From an uncultured Chloroflexia bacterium (GTDB lineage Bacteria; Chloroflexota; Limnocylindria; Limnocylindrales; CSP1-4), in assembly GCA_963728745.1 (NCBI GenBank), contig CAVSKY010000006.1, positions 389,015 through 453,014 of the forward strand: DNA of 64,000 nt, read 5' to 3'. Under the pieces are notes generated by a model. That model searched no databases and was not told the DNA's origin. It saw nothing but the letters and a program-made list of their open reading frames with translations. The position numbers were made by a program, and so were the translations under genes. Below are positions 2,207-53,681 of this stretch, piece by piece; position 1 is the stretch's first letter; each line of letters begins with the position of its first letter.

Positions 2207-2424
2207 CGATCCGACACTAACAGGGGGTCGATGCCCCGAGGGTCAGGGATTTCCCGGAACGTCCGGACGGGATGCGACGGCTTGGCCGCAGGTCATCCGT
2301 CGTTGACGCTGCTGCGTATCGACGGGTGAAACGCGATTGCTTCCTTGCGCCGACGCGTCGTCTGGGGGACGTCCGTCGGCGCATCTGTTCCTGTAGCGAT
2401 CGCCTGGGCTCGGTCGCTTCCCCG

Positions 2425-17290: not shown

Positions 17291-17926
17291 TCACCGCGAC
17301 GACCCCCGTCCCTCCGACGGGGGTCGTCGTGTTTTCTGCGTCGGGTCCGGCAGGTCTGCCGGCGTGTCGATGTCGGTGAGCGTGGCGCCGGCAAGGTCGT
17401 CACGGCGCCAGATCGAGGCAGAGATGACCTTGGCGTCAAGCTCGCCGATCAGCGCTCGCAGGCGTCGCTCGCCGCTCGCGATCAACCGCTCGACCGCGGG
17501 TCGCGCCACGGACGGACGGATCGCCATCGGAAGCGGGCGAGGCCTCGTCTCGTCCGCCAGGACAGCCGCGTCGTGGTCGTCGAGCGCGACGATCAGCCGT
17601 TCGAGGACGGCCGGAACGAGGCCAGGCATATCGGCACCGACGACCACGACCCGATCGACCGTTGGATCCAGGGCCTCCAAACCGGAGGCCAAGCCGGACA
17701 AGGGCCCCTCGAACGGGAGCGCGTCGTGGACGATGGTGACGCCGTCACGGGCGCCTGCGGTAGCCCTCGGTGAGGTCACGACCAGGATGTTGCTCGTCAC
17801 CAACCGCACGGCGTCGATCGCGTGGTCGAGCATCGGCCGGCCGTCGATCGGCTCGACCAGCTTGTCGCGGCCGAACCGAGACGAGCGGCCGCCGGCCAGG
17901 ACGATCGCCGCCGTACGCTCGGTCAT
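17291..17926 (-). CDS. mobA: Molybdenum cofactor guanylyltransferase
   Basis: AAIVLAGGRSSRFGRDKL ... VVVGADMP are the MobA nucleotide-binding signatures. There is a 4-nt overlap with selB. Confidence 0.75.
   Translation of the reverse strand: MTERTAAIVLAGGRSSRFGRDKLVEPIDGRPMLDHAIDAVRLVTSNILVVTSPRATAGARDGVTIVHDALPFEGPLSGLASGLEALDPTVDRVVVVGADMPGLVPAVLERLIVALDDHDAAVLADETRPRPLPMAIRPSVARPAVERLIASGERRLRALIGELDAKVISASIWRRDDLAGATLTDIDTPADLPDPTQKTRRPPSEGRGSSR
17297..17340 (+). terminator. Rho-independent terminator-like hairpin, embedded in the 3' coding end of mobA on the opposite strand
   Basis: CGACGACCCCCGTC-CCTCC-GACGGGGGTCGTCG gives a 14-bp perfect stem. It is followed by TGTTTTCTG. Confidence 0.5.
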
Positions 17927-19686
17927 CGACCGGCGGCGGTGGGCGCCTTCGCTCCCGGGACGTGCCCGGCCGGCGTGCGGCGCAGGATCGCCCGCCGGTC
18001 GAGATCCTCGAGGATGGCCATCACGTACTTGCGGCTGGTCCCGGTGGCGTCGCGCAAGGCGGCAGGCGTCAGCGGCCCCCGCGTGGCCATCGTCAGGGCC
18101 CGTTCGGTCAGGGTCCGGTAGGTGGTGGCTGCGTAGGCCAGGTCCGCCTCGACGACGATGATCCGGCCGCTGCGCTCAAGATCGCGGATGCCTGCGGGCG
18201 AGCACCCAGCGACCCGTGCGGCCTCTGCCAGCGATGGCGGGGCGAGGACGTCGAGCATGGATTCAAGGCGGTCCATGGCGGCGACCATGGCCTGATCGGG
18301 GCCAGCCGGCGCCCGGCCGGCACGCCGTACGACGTCCCCGTCGCGTGCGAGGCGACCGTCGGCGACCAGCCGATCGATGACAGCGTTCGCAGCGGCTGAA
18401 GCGTCGTCGCGGCGGGTGGTCACGGCACGGCGCAGGGCTCGTGCCGCCGCGCTCCGCGCAGTCGATAGCGATGCCTCGCCGGGCACCGCGGCAAGGACCG
18501 CGTCGGCGGCGGCCGCTGTGACGTCCGGTGCCAGCTCTCCGTCCAGCATCCCGTGGAGGTCCAACCGCGCCGCCCGGTCGCCCGCGGCCAGGGCGGCGAC
18601 GCGCTCGGGCGTCTGCCGGCGGCGCGAGACCCCGCGCGCCGGGGTGCTATCGAGCACGACGCCGCCGACCGGCGCCCCCTGCGCTCCGCGGCGCACCACG
18701 AAGCGATCGCCCTGGCGGAGGGCGATCGGCTGACTGAGCCGGAGGATCCCAGCCGGTCGCCCGTCCGGCAGCGCGAGGGCATCGCGGCCGCTGCGGCCGA
18801 TCGTGCCGTCCACCGCTGCGGTCCCTGCGTGCACCCGCCCGCTGGCCCGGTCCCCGACGGGATCGCGGAACGCGACCAGGGCACGCTCCGCCGCGACGAC
18901 CGCCGGATCGGCGGTGAGCACCATCCCGCGATGCAGCTCCCGGGCGTCGATCCCGGCGACGTTCAGGGCGGTCCGACCACCCGTCTCGACGGCGTCGACC
19001 GGCGTCCCGTGGACCTGGATCTCGCGGATCCGTGCCGTCCGATCGCCCGGGACCAGCCTGAGCGTCTCCCCTCGTCTGAGCGGTCCGCCCCGCAAGGTGC
19101 CGGTAACCACCACGCCGCGACCCTTCACGGAGAAGACGCGATCGATCGCAAGGGTCGGTGGTCGAAGGGAAAGGCGGACGCGGTCTCGGAGGTCGATGAG
19201 CGCCTCGCGCAGGGCGTCCACGCCCGCCCCGGTCAACCCTGACGCGGCGACAACCGGCGCGCCGGCCATCGATGTCGCGGCCAGCAACGCGGCAACGTCC
19301 GCCCGAACGGCCTCGACCCGCTCGCGCGGGACCGCGTCGATCTTGTTCACGACCGCGATCGCGCGGCCGATCCCGAGCGCATCGAGCAGCGCGACGTGCT
19401 CGTGCGTTTGCGCGCGGAGTCCATCGTCCGCAGCCACGACGAGCAATGCAGCATCGATCTCGCCGGCACCGACGAGCATGTTGCCGACCAGCTTGTCGTG
19501 CCCCGGCACGTCGACGAAGTCGATCGTCGTGCCGTCGTCGAGATCGAGATGGGCATACCCGACATCGATCGTCATGCCGCGCCGACGCTCCTCGGGGAGG
19601 CGGTCCGCATCGATCCCGGTGAGCGCGCGGAGCAACGTCGTCTTGCCGTGATCGATGTGGCCGGCCGTGCCCACGACGATGGTCAT
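17923..19686 (-). CDS. selB: Selenocysteine-specific translation elongation factor
   Basis: G-domain motifs [17 protein letters not shown] and NKID. It is 587 aa with a long C-terminal winged-helix region. It lies immediately downstream of selA. Confidence 0.85.
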
Positions 19687-21050
19687 CGCCCGGCGAGCGC
19701 GATCCTGACCGTGGCGGCCAACCGCCGATCCTGATCAGGATGGACGGTTCGAAGGTCGAGCAGCACGCGATCGTCCTCGATCCGGCCGATCACCGCCTGG
19801 CGACCGCATCGTCGGATCCGAGCCAGCAGACCGTCGGCGGACGAGCTCGCGACCGCAACGCCGACCGACGGGATCGTCTCGCCAGGAAGGCTGCCGCCGC
19901 CGATGGTGGATGCCATCTCGGCGACTGACGCTGCAGACCCGATCCTGGCTGCAACCCGCTCAGCGCGGGCTCGCAGGGCATCGACCGGCGTCGCGATCAT
20001 GACCCACACAGGGATCTGCGACATGGCCAGGCCAGCCCGGTACAACCCCAACGTCGCCGCCACGCCCAGCAGCGTCGCCTTGTCAGGGCGCATGGCCCGC
20101 GCCAGCGGATCGCGCCGCATCCGGGCAATGAGGTCCCCTCGACCGACGACCAGACCGGCCTGCGGTCCACCGACGAGCTTGTCGCCACTGAACGTGACGA
20201 TGTCGGACCCTATCGCCAGGCGCTCGGCCGGGGTCGGTTCGTGGGCAAGCCCGAACTGCTCGGTCGGGAGCAGTGCCCCTGATCCGAGATCGTCGATGAC
20301 GAACGCGCCGTGTCGATGCGCGAGCTCCGCCACACGGCTGGGATCGGGGGACTCGGTGAAACCGGCCATCGAGAAATTCGACGGGTGCACCCGAAGCACG
20401 GCACGAGCCTTGCCTTCAGCCAGCGGGGCCTCGAAGTCCTCGGCGCGTGTCCGGTTGGTCGTCCCTACCTCGATGAGCTTCGCGCCGACACGCCGGATGA
20501 TGTCCGGGATGCGCACGCCGCCGCCGATCTCGACGAGCTCGCCGCGCGACACGACGACGCCGCCGCGGCCCGCCAGGCCGACGGCCAGCACGAGAGCGGC
20601 CGCGTTGTTGTTCGTGACCAAGGCATCGTCGGCGCCGGTCAGCGCGATGAGGAGCTCCTCGGCGCGTCGATAGCGGTGCCCTCGACGACCGGTCTCCCGA
20701 TCGATCTCCAGCAGCAGGTAGTCGGTCGCACCTGCGGCGTGGATCGAAGCGATCCTGGGCCACGGCGCGCGACCGAGATTGGTATGGACGATCACCCCGG
20801 TCGCATTGATGACGTAGTCATCCTCGAACGGGACCTGTGCGTCCAGCCTTTTGAGGACGTCATCGATGAGATCGCGGACGAGCCGCGGATCGTTCCCCGC
20901 GGCGATCCGCACCCGTTCCTCCTCGATCACCGCACGGGCCGCGTCGACGACAACATCGTGCTGGCGCTCGAAGCCTTCGCGCAGTCGCACCGACGTCAAC
21001 AGGCCGTCGACGCTGGGTGGACGCGGATGCACGACCGGCTTCGACGTCAT
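19683..21050 (-). CDS. selA: L-seryl-tRNA(Sec) selenium transferase
   Basis: Signature FSGDKLVGGPQAGLVVGR with the PLP lysine context. The start is taken as ATG at 21050 behind GGAGGA. This removes the overlap with tRNA-Sec that the track's 21092 start would create. Confidence 0.85.
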   Translation of the reverse strand: MTSKPVVHPRPPSVDGLLTSVRLREGFERQHDVVVDAARAVIEEERVRIAAGNDPRLVRDLIDDVLKRLDAQVPFEDDYVINATGVIVHTNLGRAPWPRIASIHAAGATDYLLLEIDRETGRRGHRYRRAEELLIALTGADDALVTNNNAAALVLAVGLAGRGGVVVSRGELVEIGGGVRIPDIIRRVGAKLIEVGTTNRTRAEDFEAPLAEGKARAVLRVHPSNFSMAGFTESPDPSRVAELAHRHGAFVIDDLGSGALLPTEQFGLAHEPTPAERLAIGSDIVTFSGDKLVGGPQAGLVVGRGDLIARMRRDPLARAMRPDKATLLGVAATLGLYRAGLAMSQIPVWVMIATPVDALRARAERVAARIGSAASVAEMASTIGGGSLPGETIPSVGVAVASSSADGLLARIRRCGRQAVIGRIEDDRVLLDLRTVHPDQDRRLAATVRIALAGR

Positions 21051-21060
21051 CAGTCCTCCG

Positions 21061-21157
21061 TGGCGGGAACGCGTGGGAGTCGAACCCACCACGCCACGCC
21101 GAGCGCGGCGTCACCGGTTTTGAAGACCGGGGAACCCACCGGGGCCCAACCGCTCCC
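21061..21157 (-). tRNA. selC: tRNA-Sec (anticodon TCA)
   Basis: The reverse complement folds with an 8-nt acceptor (7 pairs), a 6-bp D-stem with 4-nt loop, and an anticodon stem-loop CCGGT-CTTCAAA-ACCGG. It also has a long variable arm, T-arm GTGGG-TTCGACT-CCCAC, and genomic CCA. It lies directly upstream of selA. Confidence 0.75.
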
Positions 21158-21213
21158 GCACGGATGGTAATGCGGGGGTCGTGGAATGGCCCGGGCGCAC
21201 CAACCCAGCAAAG

Positions 21214-21283
21214 CCTTCGAAATCGAAGGATCGCGTTCGGCGATGGGTGATCGCCGTGAGAGAAAACCTTCGAAATCGAAGGA
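21214..21283 (+). promoter_or_regulatory. Twin 16-bp perfect palindromes CCTTCGAAATCGAAGG (at 21214-21229 and 21267-21282), 53 bp apart, in the selC/selD divergent region
   Basis: A 17-bp exact direct repeat, CCTTCGAAATCGAAGGA. Each copy is a 7-2-7 inverted repeat. The second copy overlaps the selD ribosome-binding site and start. Confidence 0.4.
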
Positions 21284-21284
21284 G

Positions 21285-22391
21285 ATGCTGGCGGCAATGC
21301 CGCCGGCGGAGCCGGAACGCGGGCCCGCCTATCATCGTCTCGTGGCGACCCTGTCCGACGTCCCGAGCCTGCGGCTCACAAGCCTCACCGATTGCGGCGG
21401 CTGCGCGGCGAAGCTTGGTGCCGACCTGCTCTCCGAGGCGCTCGCAGGACTCGGCGCCGAGGCGGCACCCGACGAGCTCATCGCCGGGCTCCAGCCACCG
21501 GACGACGCCGCGGCCTATCGCGTCAGCGATGACCTCGCGATCATCGGCACGGTCGACTTCTTCCCGCCGCTGGTCGATGACGCGCGGACGTTCGGCGAGA
21601 TCGCGGCCGCGAACGCGATGAGCGACGTCTTCGCGATGGGCGGCCGCGTCCTCTTCGCCCTGTCGATCGCGGCGTTCCCCGAAGAGCTGCCGCGGAACGT
21701 GCTGGCGGAGGTGTTCGGTGGGGCGTCGGACAAGGTCCGCGAAGCCGGCGGGACCCTGGCGGGCGGCCATACGATCCGCGACCCGGAGCCCAAGTACGGG
21801 CTGGCGGTCATCGGCGCCGCGCACCCGAATCGACTCCTGCGCAAGGGTGCGGCCAGACCCGGCGACCAGCTCCTGCTCACCAAGCCGCTCGGCACCGGCC
21901 TGCTGGTGAGCGGCGCGCGAGCGGGCCGGACCGAACCTGCGGACCTCGCCGCGGCCATCGAGGGGATGCGGACCCTCAACCGCGCGGCGGCCGACGTCCT
22001 GGTCGGCCATGGGGTGACGGCTGCGACGGATATCACCGGCTTCGGCCTGCTCGGCCACGGCCTCGAGATGGCGCGCGCATCGGGCGCGCGGCTCATCTTC
22101 GACGCGCGGAGCATCCCGCCGCTGGACGGAGCGCTCGACCTCGCGCGCGCAGGCGTCGAGACCGGCGGTGCCGCGCACAATCGACGATTCGTCGCCGACG
22201 AGCTGGCTGTCGCGGCGGGCGTGCCGGCGGAGCTCGTGACACTCGCCTTCGACCCGCAGACGAGTGGCGGCCTGCTCGCAGCGATCGATCCGGATCGGGT
22301 GGAGGGGGTCGTCGCCGGCCTGCAGGGCGCAGGCGTCGACGTCTGGCGGATCGGCCGCGTGGAGGCGGGCTCGGGCGTCGCGCTGGCCTAG
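21285..22391 (+). CDS. selD: Selenide, water dikinase (selenophosphate synthetase), Cys-type
   Basis: RLTSLTDCGGCAAKLG is the SelD active-site loop with Cys, not Sec. AIR-synthase-related fold motifs are present. The start could be 21285 or 21297. Confidence 0.85.
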   Translation: MLAAMPPAEPERGPAYHRLVATLSDVPSLRLTSLTDCGGCAAKLGADLLSEALAGLGAEAAPDELIAGLQPPDDAAAYRVSDDLAIIGTVDFFPPLVDDARTFGEIAAANAMSDVFAMGGRVLFALSIAAFPEELPRNVLAEVFGGASDKVREAGGTLAGGHTIRDPEPKYGLAVIGAAHPNRLLRKGAARPGDQLLLTKPLGTGLLVSGARAGRTEPADLAAAIEGMRTLNRAAADVLVGHGVTAATDITGFGLLGHGLEMARASGARLIFDARSIPPLDGALDLARAGVETGGAAHNRRFVADELAVAAGVPAELVTLAFDPQTSGGLLAAIDPDRVEGVVAGLQGAGVDVWRIGRVEAGSGVALA

Positions 22392-22978
22392 CGGAGTCGG
22401 ACGTACGCGCCGACGATGGTGGCGCCGATGCTGATCAGCACGGATGGCACGTACTGGAGCAGGAAGGCGTCAAGCGCGAGGGCTGGATAGCCGGTCTCTC
22501 CAGCGGCCTCGGCCATCGCCGCATACCCCAGCAGCTCCCGCCACAGCCCGACCAGCGACAGTGACGCGCCCAGCAGCCCGCCGATCGCGATCCCGGCGAT
22601 CGCGAGCGCGAGGATCCGTGGGCCGCGCTTGATGCCGATCGTCCGGTCGAGCGCCTCGGCGATGATCGTGCCGGCGAAGAAGCCGAGGACGAGCATGAAG
22701 AACCCGAACTGCGCCCCGAAATAGCCCACCACAGCCCCGAGACCCGTGGCGACGGCCAGCCCGATCGCGAGCTGCCTCGTGCTCAGCGACGCAAGGGCAT
22801 CGCGCGACGGCTTGCCGCACGTCCTGCAACGCAGCCCGACCGGACCCTGCATGGAGCAGCGGGTGCAGATCGGTTGATCGCAGCGACCGCAGCGGACCCA
22901 CGTCTCACGGTCCGGATGGCGGTAGCAGTAGAGCGGCGGCGGCTCGCTGAGATCCGCAGTCGCGGCGTCGGTGGTCAT
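22388..22978 (-). CDS. Membrane protein with N-terminal zinc ribbon (CYRHPDRETWVRCGRCDQPICTRC) and glycine-rich TM helices
   Basis: Start is ATG at 22978 behind GAGGGGA. Four cysteines form a ribbon, followed by about 4 TM helices. It is a paralogue of the 30754-31455 gene. Confidence 0.5.
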   Translation of the reverse strand: MTTDAATADLSEPPPLYCYRHPDRETWVRCGRCDQPICTRCSMQGPVGLRCRTCGKPSRDALASLSTRQLAIGLAVATGLGAVVGYFGAQFGFFMLVLGFFAGTIIAEALDRTIGIKRGPRILALAIAGIAIGGLLGASLSLVGLWRELLGYAAMAEAAGETGYPALALDAFLLQYVPSVLISIGATIVGAYVRLR

Positions 22979-23073
22979 GTGTCCCCTCGCATGAACGATG
23001 CGGAGGTTGCCGTTCGAACGGCCCGTCGTCAAGCGGTACACTCGGGCGGTCGTCATCCGCAGGAGTCCACCGA

Positions 23074-24987
23074 GTGGCACGACCCTACGTACGACTGACC
23101 CAGCCCCTCGTGCGCGACGAGAAGGGCGGCGAGCTTCGACCAGCGACCTGGGATGAAGCGCTGGACCGCGTGGTCGCCGGGTTCCAGGCCGCGAGGGCGG
23201 CCCACGGCCCGACGACATTCGGCACCTTCAGCTGTAGCAAGGCGACCAACGAGGTCAACTTCGCGGCACAGAAGTTCAGCCGGGTGGTCCTGGGCAGCAA
23301 CAACATCGACAGCTGCAACCGCACCTGACACGCCCCGAGCGTCGCCGGTCTGGCGACCGTGTTCGGTGCCGGTGGGGGGACCAGCTCATATCGTGAGGTC
23401 GAGGACACCGATCTGATCGTCCTCTGGGGCAGCAATGCCCGCGAGACGCATCCGATCTTCTTCCACCACGTCCTCAAAGCCGTGCACAAGGGAGCGCGGC
23501 TGTATGCGGTCGACCCGCGCCGGACGTCCAGCGCGGAATGGGCCGACACGTGGCTTGGCCTCGACGTGGGCAGCGACATCGCGCTGGCCAATGCCATCGC
23601 CCGCGAGATCATCGCGTCGGGCCTGGAGCATCGCGAGTTCATCGAGCGGGCGACCGCCGACTTCGACGCCTACAAGGCCAAGGTCGAGTCGTACACGCTC
23701 GACTATGCCGAGCGCGAGACGGGCGTCCCGGCCGACGTCATCAAGGAGCTGGCGCACGCGCTGGCGACCGCGCCGCGGGCGATGATCTGCTGGACGTTGG
23801 GGATCACCGAGCACCACAACGCGGTCGACAACGTCCTGTCCCTGATCGACCTCGTCCTGCTCACCGGACACGTCGGTCGCTACGGGAGCGGCGTCAACCC
23901 GCTCCGTGGCCAGAACAACGTCCAGGGCGGCGGCGATATGGGCGCCCTGCCCGATCGTTTGCCTGGCTTCCAGCATGTCGAGAACGACACGCTCCGAGCG
24001 AAGTTCGACGCCGCCTGGGGCGTCACCGTCCCGCCGCAGCGTGGCTGGCACCTGTCGGGCATGTTCGACGCCATGGAACGGGGTGACCTGACCGCCGTGT
24101 ACTGCATCGGCGAGAACCCCGTCCAGTCGGAGGCCGACCAGCACCGCGCCATCCGGCTCCTCGAGGGCCTCGACATGCTCGTCGTCCAGGACCTGTTCCT
24201 GACGAAGACCGCCGAACTGGCGGACGTCGTCCTGCCGGCGAGCGCCGCATGGGCCGAGGGCGAGGGGACGGTCACCAACTCGGAGCGACGCGTCCAACGC
24301 GTCCGCAAAGCGGTCGAGCCGCCTGCGGGTGCCCGGGACGACCTGGCGATCATCTTCGACCTCGCGCGGCGGATGGGCGCCGACTGGGGCGACGCTGGCG
24401 CCGAACGCGTGTGGGACGAGGTCCGCGCGCTGTCGCCCGTCCATGCCGGGATGAGCTACCAGCGCCTCGAGGAGCTCGGCGGCATCCAGTGGCCGTGCTA
24501 CGACGAGGACCATCCCGGCGAGCTATTCCTCCACAGCCGGCTCTGGGAGGATCCGGTCCCGGGCAACCGCGTCCCGTTCGTTCCCGTCGACCACGACCCG
24601 CCGGTCGACAAGCTCACCGACGAGTACCCCATCCGGCTGACGACGGGCCGCCGGCTCGATTCCTACAACACCGGGGTCCAGACGGCCGGGTACACCTCGC
24701 CGCTGCGGCGTGGCGAGTCACTCGACATCTCGCCCGAGGACGCCGAGGCATACGGTCTGGCGGATGGCGAGGTCGTGTGCGCGATCTCGCGGCGCGGGCG
24801 GGTCGAGGTACCGGTCAGGATCGATCCGTCGCTGCGCCCGGGTCTCACGTTCATGACGCTCCATTTCCAGGACGACGTCGCCACGAACCTGCTGACGATC
24901 GACGCCACGGACCCGAAATCCGGCACCGCCGAGTTCAAGGCGACCGCGATCCGGATCGAGAAGCTCGCACAGCCCGTCTCGGCCTGA
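23074..24987 (+). CDS. fdhF: Formate dehydrogenase catalytic subunit (FdhF-like bis-MGD molybdo/tungstoenzyme), selenocysteine-containing, lacking the N-terminal Fe-S domain
   Basis: GTG at 23074 behind AGGAG. The in-frame TGA at 23326-23328 sits inside the conserved FDH active-site block NNIDSCNRT-U-HAPSVAGL. The same reading frame continues through 24987 and is strongly FdhF-like. Confidence 0.85.
23338..23360 (+). promoter_or_regulatory. SECIS-like mRNA hairpin GUCGCC-GGUCU-GGCGAC, 12 nt downstream of the UGA
   Basis: It mirrors the E. coli fdhF SECIS apical stem-loop (GGUCUG loop, encoding VAGL). Confidence 0.6.
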
Positions 24988-24992
24988 CCAAG

Positions 24993-25370
24993 GTGGCCGC
25001 CTCATCCGGGATCACCATCGTTGCCGCAGGCGACCTCGTCGATAACGTTCCGACACTTGGCATGCAGCGCCGCGAGGCAGCGGCTGGTGGGGCACGTATC
25101 ATCGCCGTGCGGACGCGACCGGGACTCGTATCGGGCTGGCACCATCATGCTGGATACGCGACCTACGGCTATGTCATCGCCGGACACCTCCGACTCGAGA
25201 GCGGGTCGCACGGCGCAACGGTGGTCGAGGCTGGGCCAGGCGACTTTTTCATCGTCCCGCCGGAAACGGTCCATCGAGAGAGCAACCCGTCTGACGAGGA
25301 GCAGGTGATCGTCGGGTTTCGGATCGGCGAGGGCGAAACGGTCGTGAACGTGGAAGGTCCCGATGGCTGA
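24993..25370 (+). CDS. Cupin-domain protein
   Basis: SGWHHHAGYATYGYVIAGHLRLE and GDFFIVPPETVHRESN are cupin motifs 1 and 2. The start could be GTG at 24993 or ATG at 25062. An 8-nt overlap joins it to the next gene. Confidence 0.6.
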   Translation: MAASSGITIVAAGDLVDNVPTLGMQRREAAAGGARIIAVRTRPGLVSGWHHHAGYATYGYVIAGHLRLESGSHGATVVEAGPGDFFIVPPETVHRESNPSDEEQVIVGFRIGEGETVVNVEGPDG

Positions 25371-26184
25371 GATCCCGGCGCAGCAGCAAGCTGACGATCA
25401 AGAGGACGGCGGGACGGAATTCGTCTCCGACCCCATGTGGGAGCGGCTGCTGAACGACCCCAATTCGGGGTTCGCCGCGGGCCGTGGGTTCCTCCGCATG
25501 CTCCCGAGTGATCCCCGCTGCAAGATGTGCGCCGCTCCGTTCGCAGGGCCCAGCGCGCCATTCATGCGGATGATCGACCGTGGTCGGTGGGACAAGAATC
25601 CCTCGATCTGCGGCCTGTGCTTCAAGCAGCTCGAGAAGGCTCGGGGCGGCGCCGAGATCGAGCTGAGCATGCTCTTTGCCGACGTGCGCGGATCGACCGG
25701 CCTTGCGGAGCGGATGGGCCCGGGCGCCTTCCAGAACCTCCTGGCCCGGTTCTACAAGGCAGCCACGAATGCCCTCGTGGCACGCGACGGCATCATCGAC
25801 AAGTTCGTCGGCGACGAGGTCGTCGCGCTCTTCCTGCCCGTCCTGGCGGGTCACGACCACGCGGCACACGCGATCGACGCAGCTCAGGAGTTGCTGCGCG
25901 CGACCGGGCATGCGACCGAGGGTGGACCGTGGATCCCCGTCGGCGCCGGTGTCCACACCGGGGTCGCGTACGTCGGGGCCATCGGCGACACCGTGACCGA
26001 CTTCACCGCGCTCGGCGACAGCGTCAACGTCACGGCGCGGCTCGCCTCGGCGGCGGGACCCGGGGAGATCCTCGTCAGCGCCGCCTCGGCGACCGCCGCC
26101 GGGCTCGACCAAAGCCTCGAGCTGCGCACGCTCACGCTGCGCGGTCGCGCGGAGCCCCTAGACGTCCGCGTCCTACGGGTCTGA
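25363..26184 (+). CDS. Class III adenylate/guanylate cyclase with N-terminal zinc ribbon
   Basis: Zinc ribbon CKMC...(16)...CGLC. Cyclase-homology-domain blocks MLFADVRGST, FVGDEVVALF, HTGVAYVGAIG and LGDSVNVTARL. Confidence 0.8.
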   Translation: MAEIPAQQQADDQEDGGTEFVSDPMWERLLNDPNSGFAAGRGFLRMLPSDPRCKMCAAPFAGPSAPFMRMIDRGRWDKNPSICGLCFKQLEKARGGAEIELSMLFADVRGSTGLAERMGPGAFQNLLARFYKAATNALVARDGIIDKFVGDEVVALFLPVLAGHDHAAHAIDAAQELLRATGHATEGGPWIPVGAGVHTGVAYVGAIGDTVTDFTALGDSVNVTARLASAAGPGEILVSAASATAAGLDQSLELRTLTLRGRAEPLDVRVLRV

Positions 26185-26232
26185 CCCGCCGGGGGCCGGT
26201 TCGACGCCCGAGCGGCGCTACACTCGAACGCG

Positions 26233-28080
26233 ATGGACCTGCACGTCATCGGGCCCCTCGCCTCCCCGGCCGAACGCGCCGCGGTCGACAGCGTCCTTGG
26301 CCCGCCCGAGTCCGGCTGGGTCGGCGGACCGCGCCGAGCCGGCGTGGAGGGACACGCCGCCCGCGGCGGTCACGCGATCCGCGCGAAACGGTCGCAGCTG
26401 CTGCCCGCCCTCCATGCCGTCCAGGACCGCATCGGTTGGATCAGCCAGCCAGCGCTGAACTACATCTCGCGCCGGTTGGCAGTCCCGCCGGCCGAGGCGT
26501 ACGGCGTGGCGACGTTCTACGCCCTGTATGCCACCGATCCGCGACCGCCGGTCATGGCGCACGTCTGCGACGACATCGCGTGCCGACTGGCCGGGGCGGA
26601 GCGGATCTGCGAGGACCTGGCGCGGTCGGTCGGGCCTGAAGGAGCAGCGACGGGCGACGGGCGACGGGGCTGGCTACGCTCCCCGTGTCTCGGGCTGTGC
26701 GAGCTGGCCCCGGCCGCGCTGATCACCAGCGCGGGCGAGTCGGGCTCGGTCATGAGCGCGGCCCCGGTCGATGCCGCCGGGATCGTCGCGCGGCTCGATG
26801 CCGGCGCGACCGTACGCGCGCCGCGCCCGGTGCCGCAGGCCGGTGACGGATCAGTCCGGCTCCTGCGCCGCATCGGCCTGGTCGATCCGACGTCGCTCGA
26901 CGACTATCGCGCGCACGGCGGGTACAGCGCGCTCCCAACGGCGCTCGAGATGGGCGCCGAGGCGGTGATCGGCGAGGTCACGGCCTCGAAGCTGATGGGC
27001 CGCGGTGGCGCGGCATTCCCGACTGGTCGTAAGTGGGCCGCCGTCGCCACCCAGCCCGCCCAGCCGCACTACATCGTGTGCAACGCGGACGAGTCGGAGC
27101 CGGGCACCTTCAAGGACCGCGTGATCCTCGAGGGCGATCCGTTCGCGGTCGTCGAGGCGATGACGATCGCCGCATTCGCGACGGGCGCCAGCCAGGGCTA
27201 CATCTACATCCGGGGCGAGTATCCCGAGGCGGAGTCGGCAGTCCGTAACGCGCTCGCCGCCGCGCGCACGGCCGGCCTGCTTGGCGGGGACATCCTCGCG
27301 TCGGGTTTCGCGTTCGACATCGAGGTCCGCCGAGGCGCGGGCGCGTACATCTGCGGCGAGGAGACGGCGCTCTTCGAGTCGATCGAGGGCAAGCGCGGCG
27401 AGCCGCGCAACAAGCCGCCGTTCCCGGTCGAGGTCGGGCTGTTCGGGAAGCCGACCGTCGTCAACAACGTCGAGACGCTGATCAACGTGCCGCTCGTGCT
27501 GGAGATGGGCGGCGAGGCGTACGCCCGTATCGGGACGGAGGGCTCGACCGGGCCGCGGCTGTTCTGCCTGTCGGGCAACGTCGCACGGCCGGGCGTGTAT
27601 GAGGTCGAATTCGGCGCGACCCTCGCCGAGCTGATCGAGCGCGCCGGCGGCGTTCCGGGTGGGCGAGCGATCCGCGCGATCCTGCTCGGCGGCGCGGCGG
27701 GCGTGTTCGTGGGTCCCGATTCGTTGGACATGCCGCTCACGTTCGAGGCGACCAGGGCGGCCGGGGCGACGCTCGGATCAGGCGTGATCATGGTCTTCGA
27801 CGAGACCGTCGACCTCGTCGACACGCTTCGCCGGATCGCACAGTTCTTCCGGGATGAGTCGTGCGGTCAGTGTGTCCCCTGCCGCGTCGGGAGCGTCCGC
27901 CAGGAGGAGCTGCTGGCTCGGCTCGCGGCGGGATCGCCGGTCCGGTCGCGGGACGATGAGCTGGTACTCCTGCGCGAGGTCGGCCAGGCGATGCGCGATG
28001 CGTCGATCTGCGGGCTCGGTCAGACCGCCTCGTCCGCCATCGAATCGGCCCTCCGGCGACCGGGACTGGTGGCGCTATGA
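26233..28080 (+). CDS. NuoE-NuoF fusion (NAD(P)H-binding flavoprotein, FdsG+FdsB / HylC+HylB-like)
   Basis: The N-terminus is a thioredoxin-like 2Fe-2S domain (HVCDDIAC...SPCLGLCE). After that come GRGGAAFPTGRKW (FMN site) and GAGAYICGEETAL (NADH site). The C-terminus has ESCGQCVPCR...ICGLGQ (4Fe-4S). Confidence 0.85.
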   Translation: MDLHVIGPLASPAERAAVDSVLGPPESGWVGGPRRAGVEGHAARGGHAIRAKRSQLLPALHAVQDRIGWISQPALNYISRRLAVPPAEAYGVATFYALYATDPRPPVMAHVCDDIACRLAGAERICEDLARSVGPEGAATGDGRRGWLRSPCLGLCELAPAALITSAGESGSVMSAAPVDAAGIVARLDAGATVRAPRPVPQAGDGSVRLLRRIGLVDPTSLDDYRAHGGYSALPTALEMGAEAVIGEVTASKLMGRGGAAFPTGRKWAAVATQPAQPHYIVCNADESEPGTFKDRVILEGDPFAVVEAMTIAAFATGASQGYIYIRGEYPEAESAVRNALAAARTAGLLGGDILASGFAFDIEVRRGAGAYICGEETALFESIEGKRGEPRNKPPFPVEVGLFGKPTVVNNVETLINVPLVLEMGGEAYARIGTEGSTGPRLFCLSGNVARPGVYEVEFGATLAELIERAGGVPGGRAIRAILLGGAAGVFVGPDSLDMPLTFEATRAAGATLGSGVIMVFDETVDLVDTLRRIAQFFRDESCGQCVPCRVGSVRQEELLARLAAGSPVRSRDDELVLLREVGQAMRDASICGLGQTASSAIESALRRPGLVAL

Positions 28081-29183
28081 CCGAGGACACGACCGGCCTG
28101 TCGATGACGCGCGACCCCGCGCCCGACCCGCAGTCGCCGCACGCGGGCCAGCCGCCGGCCGCGCAGCCACTGACCGAGATCGTCCTGTCGCCGCCGGCGC
28201 GCCCGTCGAAGCCGCCGGTGCCGCCGCCGGTCGACGCGCCGCCGCAGGTCGAGCTGACCATCGACGGGCGACCGGTGTCGGTGCCCGCCGGGACCACCAT
28301 CCTCGATGCCTGCCGCGAGCTCGGCATCGACACGCCGACGCTCTGCTACGCGGAGAACCTGACCCCCGTGAACGTCTGCCGCGTGTGCGTGGTCGAGGTC
28401 ACCGGCGCACGAGTGCTCGCACCGGCCTGCTCGCGCGCGGTCGAGCCGGGCATGGACGTCCAGACCGACACCGAGCGTGTCCGCACATCGCGCAAGGTGG
28501 TGCTCGAGTTCCTCGGCTCGTCGGTCGACGTGTCGCTGACGGGCCCCGCCGTACCCGACGGCACGATCCACGCATACATGGAGCGGTACGGCGCGGATCC
28601 ATCGCGGTTCGGCCCGCCGGCCGAACCCGCGGCCGCGGGGGAGCGCGACGCACACCAGCCCGGCCACCATCACGCGCCGAGTGCGGGGGAGGCGGCGTTC
28701 GCGGCGACGGTCGCCCAGCCGACCAAGGTCGACAACGACCTCTATGTCCGCGACTACTCGAAATGCATCCTCTGCTACAAGTGCGTCGAGGCGTGTGGGG
28801 AGGACGCACAGAACACGTTCGCCATCGCCGTCGCCGGGCGCGGCTTCGATGCGCGGATCTCGACCGAGCAGGCCGTCCCGCTGCCGGAGTCGGCGTGTGT
28901 GTACTGCGGCAACTGCATCGGCGTTTGTCCGACCGGCGCACTGATGGCCAAGCCCGAATACGACATGCGCGCGGCCGGCACGTGGGACGAGTCCGCCCAG
29001 ACCGTGACCTCGACGATCTGCCCGTACTGCGGCGTCGGTTGTGTGGTCGACCTGCACGTCCAGGACGACCGCATCCTCAAGGTGACGTCGCCGCTCAATT
29101 CGTCCGTGACGGACGGCCATCTGTGCATCAAGGGCAGGTTCGGCTTCGAATTCGTGAACGAGCGACCGAAGCCCCCGGCGTGA
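28077..29183 (+). CDS. NuoG-like Fe-S subunit: 2Fe-2S ferredoxin + 4Fe-4S clusters + Mo-bisMGD-type Fe4S4 domain (N-terminal module of FdhA, HylA-like)
   Basis: ATGA overlap with the previous gene. There is a Pro-rich N-terminal linker. Cysteine motifs are CRVCVVE, CILCYKCVEACGE, CVYCGNCIGVCPTG, ICPYCGVGCVVD and GHLCIKGRFGFEF. Confidence 0.8.
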   Translation: MTEDTTGLSMTRDPAPDPQSPHAGQPPAAQPLTEIVLSPPARPSKPPVPPPVDAPPQVELTIDGRPVSVPAGTTILDACRELGIDTPTLCYAENLTPVNVCRVCVVEVTGARVLAPACSRAVEPGMDVQTDTERVRTSRKVVLEFLGSSVDVSLTGPAVPDGTIHAYMERYGADPSRFGPPAEPAAAGERDAHQPGHHHAPSAGEAAFAATVAQPTKVDNDLYVRDYSKCILCYKCVEACGEDAQNTFAIAVAGRGFDARISTEQAVPLPESACVYCGNCIGVCPTGALMAKPEYDMRAAGTWDESAQTVTSTICPYCGVGCVVDLHVQDDRILKVTSPLNSSVTDGHLCIKGRFGFEFVNERPKPPA

Positions 29184-29611
29184 ACCTCACGCCGGCCGAA
29201 GGCGACCTGCTGACCAAGGCGCGCCGCGCGACGCTTGCGACGATCGCCCCGACCGGCCGGGCACGTCTCGTGCCGATCTGCTTCATCACGATCGACGACG
29301 TCCTGTGGTCGCCCATCGACCAGAAACCCAAGGCGACCGGGGATCCCCACGGGCTCGCGCGGGTCCGCGACATCCAGGCTCGGCCTGAGGTGACGGTGCT
29401 GGTCGACCAGTGGTCCGAGGACTGGTCGGACCTGGCGTGGCTCCGGCTCCACGCTCGTGCCGTCCTGATCGAGCCCTCCGATGTCCCGACCGCCACCGTG
29501 GAGGCGCTGCGCCAGCGCTATCCGCAGTACCGGGAGCACGACCTCGAGCACCGACCCATGCTCAAGATCACGCTCGAACGCGCGACGAGCTGGTTCGCCG
29601 CAGATCGGTGA
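29180..29611 (+). CDS. Pyridoxamine 5'-phosphate oxidase family protein (PPOX-class, probable F420/FMN-dependent)
   Basis: GTGA overlap with the upstream gene. 143 aa, with the PNPOx-like split-barrel pattern (ATLATIAPTGRARLVPICF). Confidence 0.65.
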   Translation: MNLTPAEGDLLTKARRATLATIAPTGRARLVPICFITIDDVLWSPIDQKPKATGDPHGLARVRDIQARPEVTVLVDQWSEDWSDLAWLRLHARAVLIEPSDVPTATVEALRQRYPQYREHDLEHRPMLKITLERATSWFAADR

Positions 29612-29777
29612 CCTGACAGGTCAAACCGACGTGTCAGGACATAAGGCGGTATGAACAAGCGTGGGCCGGCTTGACTTCGTGCCCATCGATGCGGGATCCG
29701 ACGGTCGAGCGTGCATGTTCATCCGAATCCGTGACCCTACGGGTCGATTTGACCCACCAGGTCACTTCGCGGAAAGA

Positions 29778-30650
29778 TCAGCCCCAGCCGGTCAGGTCGC
29801 GCAGGTCGATCCGGCGGTCGTGGCTGTACACATTGAAGCCGTCGCCACGCAGGAAACCGACCAGCGTCACCCCCAGGCGCTCCGCGGTCTCGACGGCCAG
29901 GTCCGAGGGCGCCGACACCGCCGCCACGATCGGCGCACCGGCGACGGCGGCCTTCTGGATGATCTCGAAGCTGACGCGGCCCGACACCATCACGATCCGG
30001 TCGTGCAGTGGCAACGACTTCGCCAGCAGCTGCGATCCGACCAGCTTGTCGAGCGCGTTGTGGCGGCCGACGTCCTCGCGCAGCGCCAGCAACTCGCCCG
30101 CCGGGGTGAACAGCGCGGCCGCGTGGAGTCCGCCGGTCTCATCGAACGCCTTCTGGGCCGCACGCAGCAGGTCGGGCAGGGCGACGATCACCGCGCGCGG
30201 CACGACCGGCCCGTCGGGGAGCGGATCGCAGCGCATCACCACCTCGTCGATCGACGCCTTGCCGCAGATCCCACAGGAAGCCGTCGCCACGAAGTGGCGC
30301 TCGGCGATGGCCGATGCGTCGAACGAGGTCGAGAGGCGAACGACGATGGTGTCGTCCGGCTGGTTGAGCGTGACCGGGTCGCCGGTCTCGGTCCCGACGA
30401 CCTCGGGACCCGTGATCAGACCCTCGGTATGCAGGAAACCGACCGCCAGTTCAGCCTCATGGCCGGGGGTCCGCATCGTGACCGCGACGGCCACGGGATC
30501 CTGATCGGGACCCGCGGCACGGATCTCGAGCGGCGCTTCCCCGACGACACGGTCGGAGCGGACCTCGAGCGAGCCGCCGCGCACCGCCACGATCGAGCGC
30601 GTCGTGATGTGCCGAGTGGGCGGAGCCGTCCCTTGCGCGTGCTGGGCCAT
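29778..30650 (-). CDS. fdhD: Formate dehydrogenase accessory sulfurtransferase
   Basis: CGICGKASID (active-site Cys loop) and GRHNALDKL. The start is probably ATG at 30650; the track's first ATG is 30716. Confidence 0.85.
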   Translation of the reverse strand: MAQHAQGTAPPTRHITTRSIVAVRGGSLEVRSDRVVGEAPLEIRAAGPDQDPVAVAVTMRTPGHEAELAVGFLHTEGLITGPEVVGTETGDPVTLNQPDDTIVVRLSTSFDASAIAERHFVATASCGICGKASIDEVVMRCDPLPDGPVVPRAVIVALPDLLRAAQKAFDETGGLHAAALFTPAGELLALREDVGRHNALDKLVGSQLLAKSLPLHDRIVMVSGRVSFEIIQKAAVAGAPIVAAVSAPSDLAVETAERLGVTLVGFLRGDGFNVYSHDRRIDLRDLTGWG

Positions 30651-30753
30651 GTCCGGCGAGTGTACTGGTGTACCCCGGACCGTCGGCGGGTCGTCCGCGG
30701 AGCCGACCATCGCCATACTCGCGCCGCCGGTCGACCGCCTGTCGACGGCTGGT

Positions 30754-31455
30754 ATGAAGGGGTCCTACTCCGTGAACGATTGGGTCTGCGGCAACTGCAA
30801 GTCGATCAACCGCGGCGCGGCGAACGCGTGTTACAGCTGTGGTGGCGCCCGGGAGATCGTGGCTGCCTCAGCACCGATCATCCCGATGACCGGGCAGTCG
30901 ACCGTTTCGAGCGGGGATGGTGGCGTCGGCGTCGCCGCCCTCGCATCACCGTTCGATCCGGCGATGGTTGCTGGTGGCGCCGCCGTGGCTCCTGCTGCGG
31001 CGACAGCTCCGGGGCAGCCGGCCGGCGCGAGCAACATCCTCGGCGGGTTCGTGGGTGGCCTTGTCGCAGCGGCCCTGGCGACCGCCGTGTGGTACGGCGT
31101 CGTGGCCGTCACCCAGTATCAGATCGGCCTGGTCGCCATCGCGGTCGGCTTCATCGTCGGCTACGGCGTCGTCCTGGGCGCGAACCGGCGTGGGTCCGTG
31201 CTGCTCGTGCCGATCTCGGTCATCTTCACGCTGCTGGCGCTCGTCATCAGCGAATACCTCATCGTCGCCCACTTCGTGAGCCAGGAGTTCGCGGCCGAGG
31301 GCCTGACGATCGACCTGGTCCAGCCACCCGACTTCGTCATCAGTGTGGTGATGGACTCGCTCCAGGCGGACCCGCTGACGCTAGTCTTCTGGGCGATCGC
31401 CCTGTTCCAGGCATTCGTGATCCCCTCGCGGACGATCGGCCGCAGCAACAGCTAG
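30754..31455 (+). CDS. Membrane protein with N-terminal RanBP2-like zinc ribbon (WVCGNCKSINRGAANACYSCGG) and glycine-rich TM helices
   Basis: A four-Cys ribbon is followed by an Ala/Gly-rich linker and about 4 TM helices. It is a paralogue of the 22388-22978 gene. Confidence 0.5.
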   Translation: MKGSYSVNDWVCGNCKSINRGAANACYSCGGAREIVAASAPIIPMTGQSTVSSGDGGVGVAALASPFDPAMVAGGAAVAPAAATAPGQPAGASNILGGFVGGLVAAALATAVWYGVVAVTQYQIGLVAIAVGFIVGYGVVLGANRRGSVLLVPISVIFTLLALVISEYLIVAHFVSQEFAAEGLTIDLVQPPDFVISVVMDSLQADPLTLVFWAIALFQAFVIPSRTIGRSNS

Positions 31456-32699
31456 CGACCCGCCTCCTCGCGGTCCAGGAACAGCGCGGTCCCGGTGGGC
31501 CGCAGGCAGTGGGTCGAGCTCATCGCTTGGTGGTAACCACCGGCGTTGAGCAGGGCGACGATATCGCCTTCGGCTACCTCGGCCATCGCGTAGTCCTCCG
31601 CGAAGACGTCGCTCGCTTCGTTGATGTGGCCGGCCACCGTCACCCGCTGCGTGCGCGCGGCGGCAGGGTCGCGGCACGGGACGATCTCCTGCGCGAAGCC
31701 GTAGATGAAGTACGCGCAGTTCACATTCCAGCCGATGTCGAGGCCGACGAACGTCACGCCTCGGCGCGTTTCGACGGTGACCACCTCGGCGAGCAGGATC
31801 GCGGCGTCCTTCGTGAGCGCGTCGCCGGGCTCCGCCGTGACGGTGACGCCGAGCGGGTCGAGGTGACGCGCCACGGCCGCGGCATAGGCGGCGAGATCCA
31901 CGCCTGACTCGTCCGCGCGTGCCGGCACGCCGAGCCCGCCGCCCACGTTGACCTCGATGATGCGGTGGCCAGCGGCGTGGGCCCGCGCGACGGCTTCGAC
32001 CGCCACCGGCAGTGCGCGCTCAAACGCCGGCAGCCCGTCGGCCAGCCACCCCGAGCCGGCGTGGAAATGGATCGTGTCGATCGCAAGCCGATGCTGCGCT
32101 GCCACGGCGAGCGCCTCGTCGAATCGCTCGAGTCCGATCCCGAACTTCGTGGGGCGCGACCCGCTGTACTCGAGCTGCTCGTTGTAGCCGGCACCCGTCG
32201 CGGGGTCGATCCGGATCCCGATCGAGGACCCCCGGGCTCGCCGCCCATAGCGCGCGATCTGGCTGATCGCGTCGAGGTTGCAGTGGATGCCGTGCTCGAG
32301 GATGACGTCGAGGTCACGCTCCGAGACATTGGTGCCGGTGTAGCTGATCTCGTCCGATCGCCAGCCGCATTCCAGTGCCCGTAGCACCTCCCCGGGCGAG
32401 CAGGCATCGATGCCGACGCTGGCCGGCGTGCCGGGCGCACCGAGGGCACGGAACACGCTGAGGATCTCGGGAAACGGATCGGCCTTGAGCGCGAACCGGA
32501 GCCGGAATGGGATGCCGGTCGGGGCGAAGGCCGCCTGGATCGCGCGCGCGTTCTCGCCGAACCGCGCGAGGTCGTAGGCGAAGAGCGGTGTCCCGTGCTC
32601 CCGGGCGAGCGCCTCGGCGTCTCGCCCCGCGATCGTCAGCCGGCCGTCAACGACGTCGAGTCCGGGTCTGACCCACCACGGGGCGACGACCGTGGTCAC
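31452..32699 (-). CDS. PLP-dependent decarboxylase, fold III (diaminopimelate decarboxylase-like)
   Basis: 415 aa. FAYDLARFGENARAIQ...FALKA is the PLP-lysine region. EPGDAL and GGYHQAM motifs are present. Confidence 0.75.
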   Translation of the reverse strand: MTTVVAPWWVRPGLDVVDGRLTIAGRDAEALAREHGTPLFAYDLARFGENARAIQAAFAPTGIPFRLRFALKADPFPEILSVFRALGAPGTPASVGIDACSPGEVLRALECGWRSDEISYTGTNVSERDLDVILEHGIHCNLDAISQIARYGRRARGSSIGIRIDPATGAGYNEQLEYSGSRPTKFGIGLERFDEALAVAAQHRLAIDTIHFHAGSGWLADGLPAFERALPVAVEAVARAHAAGHRIIEVNVGGGLGVPARADESGVDLAAYAAAVARHLDPLGVTVTAEPGDALTKDAAILLAEVVTVETRRGVTFVGLDIGWNVNCAYFIYGFAQEIVPCRDPAAARTQRVTVAGHINEASDVFAEDYAMAEVAEGDIVALLNAGGYHQAMSSTHCLRPTGTALFLDREEAGR

Positions 32700-50648: not shown

Positions 50649-50723
50649 GGTGGGGGAGCGGGGACGCGGCGGAGGAGTGTGCCACGTCCCCGGACCCTGT
50701 TCCGACTCGGTGAGCCGGGTGAC

Positions 50724-51674: not shown

Positions 51675-51797
51675 CCGACCGTTCCTCCTGCCTCGTTCCA
51701 CTCCTACGTCCACCGTTCCCGGATCTGGCTCGTCTCGGCGCGTCGCGCCGCCCTGACGGCAAGCGGTCACCCCGATCCACCTCCCTCGATCAAGGGC

Positions 51798-53605: not shown

Positions 53606-53628
53606 CGTTCCTCCTCTCGGCCGATGGC

Positions 53629-53681
53629 TCAACGCTTAGGCTTATCGATGGCGCTTAACGTTTGCGCTTGACGCTAAGCGT
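53629..53681. promoter_or_regulatory. Candidate LacI-family operator(s): AACGCTTAGG / perfect palindrome ACGCTAAGCGT (53671-53681) in the SDR/LacI divergent region
   Basis: An 11-bp perfect palindrome plus related half-sites (GCGCTTAACG, GCGCTTGACG) within 110 bp of both starts. Confidence 0.3.

Follow-up and report, generated by a model that had tools for sequence, protein, structure and literature searches.

The direct sensing of CO2 and bicarbonate is documented best for the class IIIb adenylyl cyclases; for free-living bacteria, it is largely unclear what these enzymes sense and to what end. The hallmark of the subclass is the replacement of the substrate Asp by Thr, with the Lys retained (Townsend et al. 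2009, PMC2613629), and every prokaryotic class IIIb enzyme tested, including one from Chloroflexus, responds to inorganic carbon (PMC2613629). Here, we describe a putative member of this subclass encoded in a 64,000-nucleotide (nt) stretch of DNA from an uncultured Chloroflexia bacterium (the window, to whose positions all coordinates refer unless another locus is named). Its gene lies, next to that of a small cupin, among the genes for a selenocysteine (Sec)-containing formate dehydrogenase (FDH), a setting to which an earlier note, made from the sequence alone, had drawn attention. We found that the cyclase gene is kept beside FDH genes in every lineage examined whose cyclase is at least 66% identical, and our reading, a tentative one to which we give a probability of roughly 0.45, is that the cyclase may be functionally coupled to the FDH through cotranscription with the catalytic-subunit gene fdhA(Moco), cyclic AMP (cAMP) output, and tuning by inorganic carbon. 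A coupling to formate, redox, or Mo/Se status, as the earlier note suggested, would be pure conjecture.

The core of the locus reads in one direction. The fdhA(Moco) gene (23074 to 24987, + strand), which runs from a GTG start at 23074 to a stop codon at 24985 to 24987, matches the Pfam families Molybdopterin and Molydop_binding as well as TIGR01591 (Fdh-alpha; E = 2e-163). Only 5 nt past its stop codon, the cupin gene (24993 to 25370, + strand) opens with a GTG at 24993 and ends with a TGA at 25368 to 25370, encoding 125 amino acids (aa). The cyclase gene (25363 to 26184, + strand; ATG at 25363, TGA at 26182 to 26184) encodes 273 aa, and its reading frame shares 8 nt with that of the cupin (25363 to 25370, ATGGCTGA). 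A 48-nt gap then leads from the cyclase stop codon to the ATG, at 26233, of nuoEF (26233 to 28080, + strand), which encodes a NuoE-NuoF fusion, an FdsG/FdsB-like NAD/FMN flavoprotein with matches to 2Fe-2S_thioredx, Complex1_51K, SLBB, and NADH_4Fe-4S in Pfam and to TIGR01959 (7e-139). Direct reading and Pfam matches thus bear out what had been reported of the cupin and the class III cyclase, namely, their identities and coordinates, their 8-nt overlap, and their position wedged behind the gene for the FDH catalytic subunit and ahead of the one for the flavoprotein.

The cyclase homology domain (CHD; residues 99 to 273, positions 25657 to 26181, + strand) matches the Pfam family Guanylate_cyc (PF00211) over residues 101 to 244 (E = 2e-13; 50.8 bits against a cutoff of 21.9), and the sequence matched 43 cyclase chains of the Protein Data Bank (PDB) at an E value of ≤1e-3. 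Its top solved relatives were CyaC of Spirulina platensis (1WC0; 2.3e-17), Synechocystis Cya2, CyaB of Pseudomonas aeruginosa (3R5G), and a CyaB1 fusion (6FHT). An AlphaFold (AF2) model built on 51 orthologues had a mean predicted local distance difference test (pLDDT) score of 78.7, with values per 10-residue block of 82 to 97 over most of the catalytic domain and 61 to 69 over residues 201 to 220; when the model was searched with Foldseek, the fold ranking equaled the sequence ranking, with a template modeling (TM) score, taken on the target, of about 0.8 to CyaC and a probability of 1.00 to many CHDs. In a HMMER alignment to CyaC, the metal-binding Asp residues are D107 (in FADVRGST; codon 25681 to 25683) and D151 (in KFVGDE; 25813 to 25815), the substrate pair is K147 (25801 to 25803) and T215 (in DFTALGD; 26005 to 26007), whose CyaC counterparts lie in DKFVGD and DFTAIG, and the transition-state residues are N222 (26026 to 26028) and R226 (26038 to 26040), both in VNVTARL (all + strand). 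For the guanylyl cyclase Cya2, this alignment puts a Glu and a Gly opposite the substrate pair. A full catalytic set, both metal Asp residues included, had been read from the translation, and conservation upholds this: the six residues, along with four cysteines discussed below (C53, C56, C83, and C86), are invariant in the 51 orthologues, and each position is conserved in 76 to 80 of 80 paralogues.

Because the Lys147/Thr215 pair is the class IIIb hallmark and CyaC and CyaB are the nearest solved structures, we place the cyclase, as judged by alignment, in this inorganic-carbon-responsive subclass of adenylyl cyclases, and the protein is predicted to make cAMP. Of the outputs that had been entertained earlier (cAMP, cyclic GMP, or another cyclic nucleotide), it is cAMP that the pair predicts, and not cyclic GMP. 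By analogy with its tested relatives, the enzyme may be stimulated by CO2 or bicarbonate. Since one chain holds all six catalytic residues, the cyclase would be expected to work as a homodimer.

Within the N-terminal 98 residues lie two CxxC knuckles (C53 and C56; C83 and C86), which belong to a zinc-ribbon-like Cys4 module (residues 20 to 98, positions 25420 to 25656, + strand). In the AF2 model, the pLDDT of this module ranges from 51 to 81 by block, and the second knuckle runs into a short helix ahead of the first strand of the catalytic domain. A Pfam search of the region returned no family, the only hit being DZR_2 at E = 0.04 (14.2 bits against a cutoff of 27), which covers one knuckle. 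The name zinc ribbon, as used in the earlier note, stands in part: two knuckles with invariant cysteines make it a reasonable description, but a significant match to a zinc-ribbon profile was not obtained. The module, which is particular to the family, would bind a metal, for which Zn, Fe, and an Fe-S cluster are the candidates. A phmmer search with residues 20 to 98 gave 455 clusters (at 50% identity) with an E value of ≤0.001, in which the module is nearly always N-terminal and the proteins are up to about 290 aa long; 24 of 42 sampled clusters match Guanylate_cyc, and the alignment consensus retains the cyclase motifs.

The enzyme next door is itself unusual. The fdhA(Moco) gene contains an in-frame TGA (23326 to 23328) in the context SCNRT-U-HAPSV, which we read as Sec because of this T-U-HAPSV context, the tRNA-Sec gene, and the selA, selB, and selD genes. 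A 6-bp hairpin with a GGUCU loop starts 16 nt past the Sec UGA (23326 to 23385), in the place expected of a bacterial Sec insertion sequence (SECIS), and the stability of this SECIS-like hairpin does not exceed that of shuffled sequences (z = 0.51). The product of fdhA(Moco) aligns to residues 398 to 932 of Rhodobacter capsulatus FdsA (6TG9_A), and that of the Fe-S gene (28077 to 29183, + strand), identified through Pfam and this alignment as the N-terminal FdsA half with the 2Fe-2S and 4Fe-4S clusters and Molybdop_Fe4S4, aligns to residues 18 to 305. These FdsA-like halves, taken with the NuoE-NuoF fusion, make up an NAD-linked FDH of the FdsABG type. Its alpha subunit is divided between two genes at a point behind the Molybdop_Fe4S4 domain, and the order is permuted, with the Moco half first, the Fe-S half last, and nuoEF between them, and the cyclase gene is placed exactly at the junction between the two halves. 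The split is kept in all related loci, including one, L085, in which the Moco half is not nearby. A tandem duplication followed by reciprocal deletions is a plausible route to such a split and permutation.

To see how stable the arrangement is, we read the context of every cyclase homologue 66 to 92% identical on a usable contig, which gave 11 distinct lineages. They form one clade of uncultured soil Limnocylindria (Chloroflexota); the window itself belongs to ENA assembly ERZ25039576 (contig_60710), and its relatives are labeled Candidatus Limnocylindrales/Limnocylindria or Chloroflexota metagenome-assembled genomes (MAGs). In 11 of 11 lineages, the cyclase (at least 66% identical) stands beside fdhA(Moco) and/or nuoEF, so that the arrangement recurs in related genomes, as would be expected had it not been the chance insertion against which the earlier note had warned. 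The order Moco-cupin-cyclase-NuoEF-FeS of the window and L094 is found again in L089, and the same order lacking only the cupin occurs in L001 to L003, L006, L008, and L010. Other lineages carry cargo at the counterparts of one or the other junction (24988 to 24992 and 26185 to 26232). Between Moco and the cyclase, this is a Septum_form gene (L004/L009), a glyoxalase gene (L092), or a formamidase gene plus a minus-strand amino-acid permease gene (L007/L011); between the cyclase and NuoEF-FeS, in loci where the cupin precedes the cyclase, it is a set of sigma70 (extracytoplasmic function sigma), Tricorn-like, and RidA genes (contig P0042) or an acyltransferase and a BNR gene (L012/L090/L091). 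In L093, Moco, cupin, and cyclase are followed by unrelated genes, and NuoEF-FeS is not within 10 kb downstream. Synonymous divergence (dS) within the clade is 0.4 to 1.1, and identity to the window is 64 to 89% for the cyclase and 89 to 96% for FdhA. The ratio of nonsynonymous to synonymous divergence (dN/dS) against the window is 0.14 to 0.26 for the cyclase, apart from a single value of 0.36 among the seven comparisons, 0.20 to 0.22 for the cupin, and 0.05 to 0.14 for the FDH genes. The cyclase and the cupin are real genes under purifying selection.

The cupin is the less constant of the two. It matches Cupin_2 (PF07883; E = 1.3e-11, 44.5 bits against a cutoff of 27.2), its translation contains His-bearing cupin motifs (GWHHH and PPETVHRESN), and its closest solved relatives are uncharacterized Cupin_2 proteins (E = 3e-6). 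The source's own gene call uses an alternative start, ATG 25062, giving 102 aa; the longer GTG 24993 form is backed by orthologues that start 4 to 11 nt past the fdhA stop codon. Orthologues 68 to 83% identical occupy the same position in L012, L089, L090, L091, and the P0042 contig, the 8-nt overlap with the cyclase (ATGnnTGA) is kept in L089, L090, and L091, and on this evidence the cupin appears to be translationally coupled to the cyclase. It was seen beside the fdh-linked cyclase only, not beside paralogues. Its third-position GC content (GC3) is 0.71, against 0.86 to 0.90 in adjoining genes. We considered recent acquisition as an explanation and disfavor it, since divergence among the cupin orthologues is close to that of the cyclase (68 to 74% and 68 to 89% identity to the window, respectively, in L089 and L090), which fits an ancestral cupin with repeated loss. 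The cupin is present in 5 of 11 lineages, its position elsewhere being empty or taken by the Septum_form, glyoxalase, or formamidase and permease genes. Because it is lacking in six lineages that keep the cyclase, it is not an obligatory sensor for the latter, and the ligand-sensing role that had been suggested for it falls away in that form; the cupin looks like an accessory partner that is not required, and a sensor function could apply to a subset of lineages only. In L093 (positions 7906 to 9999 of that locus), a single 697-aa product (Molybdopterin plus Cupin_2) has been called across the FdhA(Moco) and cupin frames, which reflects either a genuine fusion or a frameshift or lost stop codon in a long-read assembly.

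With regard to transcription, a consensus scan found no sigma-70 consensus promoter and no terminator in 22000 to 31000, and no stable structure was found in the 48-nt gap between the cyclase and nuoEF (z = 0.79). We looked for a terminator or structured RNA in this gap and found none; Rfam gave the tRNA-Sec only. Thus, a terminator parting the cupin and cyclase genes from the flanking FDH genes, which would have told against the original proposal, was found neither by consensus scan nor by folding. A TACACT hexamer resembling a −10 element does precede fdhA(Moco) (23037 to 23042, + strand), followed by a 31-nt leader with GGAG before GTG 23074, and it has the same position in every orthologous locus covering that region (L001, L004, L006 to L008, L010, L012, L089, and L090). 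A second copy (26219 to 26224, + strand) stands 8 nt ahead of the nuoEF ATG, where it is a predicted internal promoter for a leaderless mRNA; in an intergenic alignment, a conserved GCTACACTCG with TACACT 6 to 8 nt ahead of the nuoEF start was found in the window and eight further loci. The third copy (30664 to 30659, − strand) concerns the gene for the sulfur-transfer chaperone FdhD (29778 to 30716, − strand; recognized by tblastn and by Pfam FdhD-NarQ in orthologous loci): it lies 8 nt ahead of an internal ATG at 30650, so the FdhD start is probably 30650 and not 30716. The longer TACACTC occurs at only three sites in the window (23037 to 23043, 26219 to 26225, and 30658 to 30664 on the − strand), each ahead of an fdh unit, and all three positions recur in the seven orthologous loci covering all three. 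We considered this heptamer as an fdh-specific regulon motif and rejected it, since TACACT and other TAnnnT hexamers precede long open reading frames (ORFs) by 5 to 9 nt throughout these genomes; in 0.9 Mb of related loci, this configuration is common and accounts for 20 to 38% of the occurrences of several hexamers. We therefore read the TACACT sites as ordinary −10 elements, and the nuoEF and FdhD mRNAs are predicted to be leaderless and to have their own promoters. The cyclase of L007 and L008 is itself preceded by a TAGAGT/TAGATT element together with a Shine-Dalgarno sequence. Because the nuoEF −10 element is conserved, nuoEF-FeS-PNPOx would have its own promoter and the locus at least two, and the cupin and cyclase genes are predicted to close the fdhA(Moco) unit at its 3′ end and not to lie midway in a single operon, with read-through into nuoEF possible. 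The cotranscription that had been proposed is thus favored on the upstream side by tight spacing to fdhA(Moco) and the lack of a terminator, but on the downstream side a conserved promoter-like TACACT parts the cyclase from nuoEF, in part the kind of separation that the earlier note had named as counting against its proposal.

The cyclase belongs to a large family. When one genome per species was scanned, at least 585 relatives turned up, mostly in Limnocylindria/Chloroflexota MAGs and often several per genome. Two Cys4-cyclase copies lie within 3 kb of each other in L038 and in L081, and a few matches carry the labels of Gaiellaceae, Acidimicrobiia, Methylomirabilota, or Burkholderiales MAGs, perhaps through transfer or through errors in binning. 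At about 68 loci of paralogues no more than 60% identical, we found no fdh genes within about 8 kb, L085 being the sole exception; their same-strand neighbors are heterogeneous and include major facilitator superfamily (MFS) transporters, methyltransferases, and ThiS. The fdh-linked cyclases are monophyletic in a neighbor-joining tree. L085 has NuoEF-FeS (81% identical), FdhD, and PNPOx genes, with an MFS gene upstream of nuoEF and no Moco gene nearby, and the cyclase beside its PNPOx gene belongs to a different clade. The idea that the cyclase is an integral member of the fdh operon, present wherever the operon is, thus did not hold, since in L085 the FDH is split in the same way but the gene upstream of nuoEF is that of an MFS protein. 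As a further observation, the mobA-selB-selA-tRNASec-selD-fdh-fdhD block (about 17291 to 31455) behaves as an island of about 14 to 16 kb, flanked in the window by an amidohydrolase gene (15273 to 16925) and an ornithine/diaminopimelate decarboxylase (OrnDC) gene (31452 to 32699). In L038 (positions 1 to 3383 of that locus), only some 1.1 kb separates the same two flanking genes, sel and fdh genes being absent there, and a paralogue of the L085 clade is kept about 4.6 kb from the same OrnDC gene. A second, independent recruitment of a cyclase to fdh genes in L085 was considered and is ruled out by this paralogue near OrnDC without the sel-fdh island; the adjacency in L085 is therefore a preexisting neighborhood.

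How might the cyclase and the FDH be connected? The best-supported part of our reading is that transcription of the cupin and cyclase genes would start at the fdhA(Moco) promoter, the two being the last genes of its unit, because of the 5-nt gap, the 8-nt overlap, and the lack of any promoter-like element or terminator between them; cyclase abundance would then track expression of the FDH catalytic subunit. Less supported than cotranscription is the production of cAMP, for which the Lys147/Thr215 pair speaks, and least supported is the tuning of cyclase activity by inorganic carbon, as for the tested prokaryotic class IIIb enzymes. Since CO2 is the product of the neighboring FDH, cAMP would in that case report formate-oxidation flux, and further tuning of the cyclase may come from the Cys4 module, through its redox or metal state, and from the cupin in lineages that have one. 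The complete scheme, a product-sensing loop in which the cell makes the cyclase and the FDH catalytic subunit together and CO2 released by the FDH activates the cyclase, with the Cys4 module and, in lineages that have one, the cupin adding a redox or metal (Mo/Se/Fe) input, we regard as unlikely. A number of observations weigh against coupling in any form. Thr215, Lys147, and the Cys4 module are family-wide, so that a response to inorganic carbon or redox state would not be particular to the fdh-linked copy. nuoEF has its own promoter-like element, and the cyclase seems to have one in L007 and L008; coregulation of the cyclase with fdh genes would therefore not be obligatory. Both junctions bordering the cyclase are insertion hot spots for unrelated genes in sister lineages. 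L085 has this split FDH without an embedded cyclase, and no orthologue at least 60% identical from its genome was among the matches listed in the genome scan. No cNMP_binding family was among the 25 families listed, of 65, for the 44 other proteins of the window, and all of the organisms with the locus are uncultured MAGs.

Much of this speaks for a serious rival, which we hold to be possible rather than probable, in which a paralogue from an expanded family landed, together with the cupin, in a permissive split-fdsA junction and has since been inherited vertically, a conserved hitchhiker that would be a functional cAMP cyclase serving signaling unrelated to FDH. The many genomic relatives, several per genome and in heterogeneous contexts, are what such a history would leave, as are the sharing of all distinguishing residues with paralogues, the unrelated cargo at the same two junctions, the separate promoter-like elements for nuoEF and (in L007 and L008) the cyclase, the split FDH of L085, and a clade that is fairly narrow by the 89 to 96% identity of FdhA. 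Such a passenger sits less easily with the retention of the cyclase in 11 of 11 lineages while other cargo turns over, under purifying selection and with dS near saturation (up to about 1.1), or with the way in which it stays on one FDH half even where insertions part the halves; nor has any paralogue of another clade a comparably fixed metabolic neighborhood. One might instead assign the sensing to a pair of proteins, the cupin binding a small molecule or metal (for instance Mo/W, Fe, or an acid akin to formate or oxalate) and controlling the cyclase by contact, in keeping with the overlap kept wherever the cupin is present, the His residues retained in both cupin motifs, the divergence of the cupin in step with the cyclase, and its association with the fdh-linked cyclase only. 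The 6 of 11 cyclase-keeping lineages without a cupin, in which the cyclase works alone, make this improbable, and the uncharacterized nature of the cupin's best PDB relatives lends it no help. Finally, the protein might not be a source of cAMP at all, either making another nucleotide, as a guanylyl or other nucleotidyl cyclase, or being a catalytically silent CHD with a part in regulating or assembling the split FDH. Its location between the halves of an enzyme whose pieces must assemble, and its modest Pfam match of 50.8 bits, would suit that idea, but the Lys/Thr pair fits adenylyl cyclases and not the Glu/Gly of Cya2, the invariance of the six catalytic residues in orthologues, and their near-invariance in paralogues, is unexpected for a pseudoenzyme, and the paralogues have no FDH partner; we consider it very improbable indeed. 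A functional coupling of the cyclase to the FDH is the explanation that we prefer.

The remaining features of the region are mentioned here for completeness. Upstream of fdhA(Moco) lie a mobA-like gene (17291 to 17926, − strand; NTP_transf_3 match), selB (17923 to 19686, −; called as an ORF), selA (19683 to 21092, −; ORF), the tRNA-Sec gene (21061 to 21157, −; the sole Rfam match), and selD (21186 to 22391, +; ORF), in an order identical in orthologous loci. Downstream, nuoEF and the Fe-S gene overlap by 4 nt, as do the Fe-S gene and that of a PPOX-class F420-dependent oxidoreductase homologue (29180 to 29611, +; PNPOx_N, 2.8e-9; TIGR03668, 1.3e-31), which recurs close to FDH genes in most related loci and is sometimes moved beside fdhD. 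Two conserved island proteins without a Pfam family (22388 to 23218, −, and 30754 to 31455, +) have Cys-rich, zinc-ribbon-like N termini (CYRHPDRETWVRCGRCDQPICTRC and VCGNCKSINRGAANACYSCG) followed by hydrophobic segments; the former, whose gene is transcribed away from fdhA, is probably shorter than its longest ORF (186 to 196 aa in relatives). Farther away, two neighboring plus-strand ORFs at 50679 to 53671 (816 and 190 aa) have a GC3 of 0.69 to 0.71, against 0.8 to 0.93 for nearly all other window genes, and by this measure may be foreign or recently acquired DNA.

In the literature searched, the coverage of which was incomplete, we found no description of a cyclase within a formate dehydrogenase cluster or of a zinc-ribbon class III cyclase, in agreement with the earlier view that the arrangement is undescribed. 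The enzyme class is a known one, but the regulatory module is unannotated and the genomic setting, conserved across the clade, is undescribed. That a class IIIb-type cyclase is, throughout a clade, the fixed neighbor of an enzyme converting formate and CO2 into each other yields a concrete, cheaply tested hypothesis. Attention is also drawn to a large Cys4-cyclase family without annotation (the 455 clusters mentioned above), which dominates the potential for cAMP synthesis in the Limnocylindria genomes sampled, and to an unusual FdsA that is split, permuted, and Sec dependent. Were the product-sensing loop true, bacteria would offer a case in which a cyclase responsive to CO2 is linked genetically to an enzyme that produces CO2, and class III cyclases would gain a new regulatory domain; were the cyclase only a hitchhiker, the result would be a modest note on the evolution of gene clusters.

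Set beside known systems, each part of the locus has a recognizable counterpart. The cupin resembles small single-domain Cupin_2 proteins (e.g., PDB 7ZVY and 2O8Q) in its HMM match and in the motifs G-X5-H-X-H and P-X-X-X-X-H-X3-N, but the Glu of motif 1 is not evident, the gene is coupled to that of a cyclase, and it has no characterized close relative. The FDH shares with FdsGBA/FdsABG of R. capsulatus (6TG9/6TGA) the equivalence of NuoE plus NuoF to FdsG plus FdsB and of the Fe-S N terminus plus the Moco domain to FdsA, with FdhD nearby; here, however, FdsA is split and permuted, NuoE is joined to NuoF, we read the active site as Sec, and a cyclase, with or without a cupin, lies between the halves. 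Finally, like the class IIIb cyclases S. platensis CyaC (1WC0 to 1WC6), P. aeruginosa CyaB (3R5G), Anabaena CyaB1, and mammalian soluble adenylyl cyclase (sAC), the protein has the six catalytic residues, the Lys/Thr pair among them, and a one-chain, homodimer-type layout. It differs from them in being only 273 aa long and about 28 to 30% identical, in being encoded inside an FDH gene cluster, and in carrying a short Cys4 module without a Pfam family in place of GAF, PAS, HAMP, CHASE, or MASE-type N-terminal domains.

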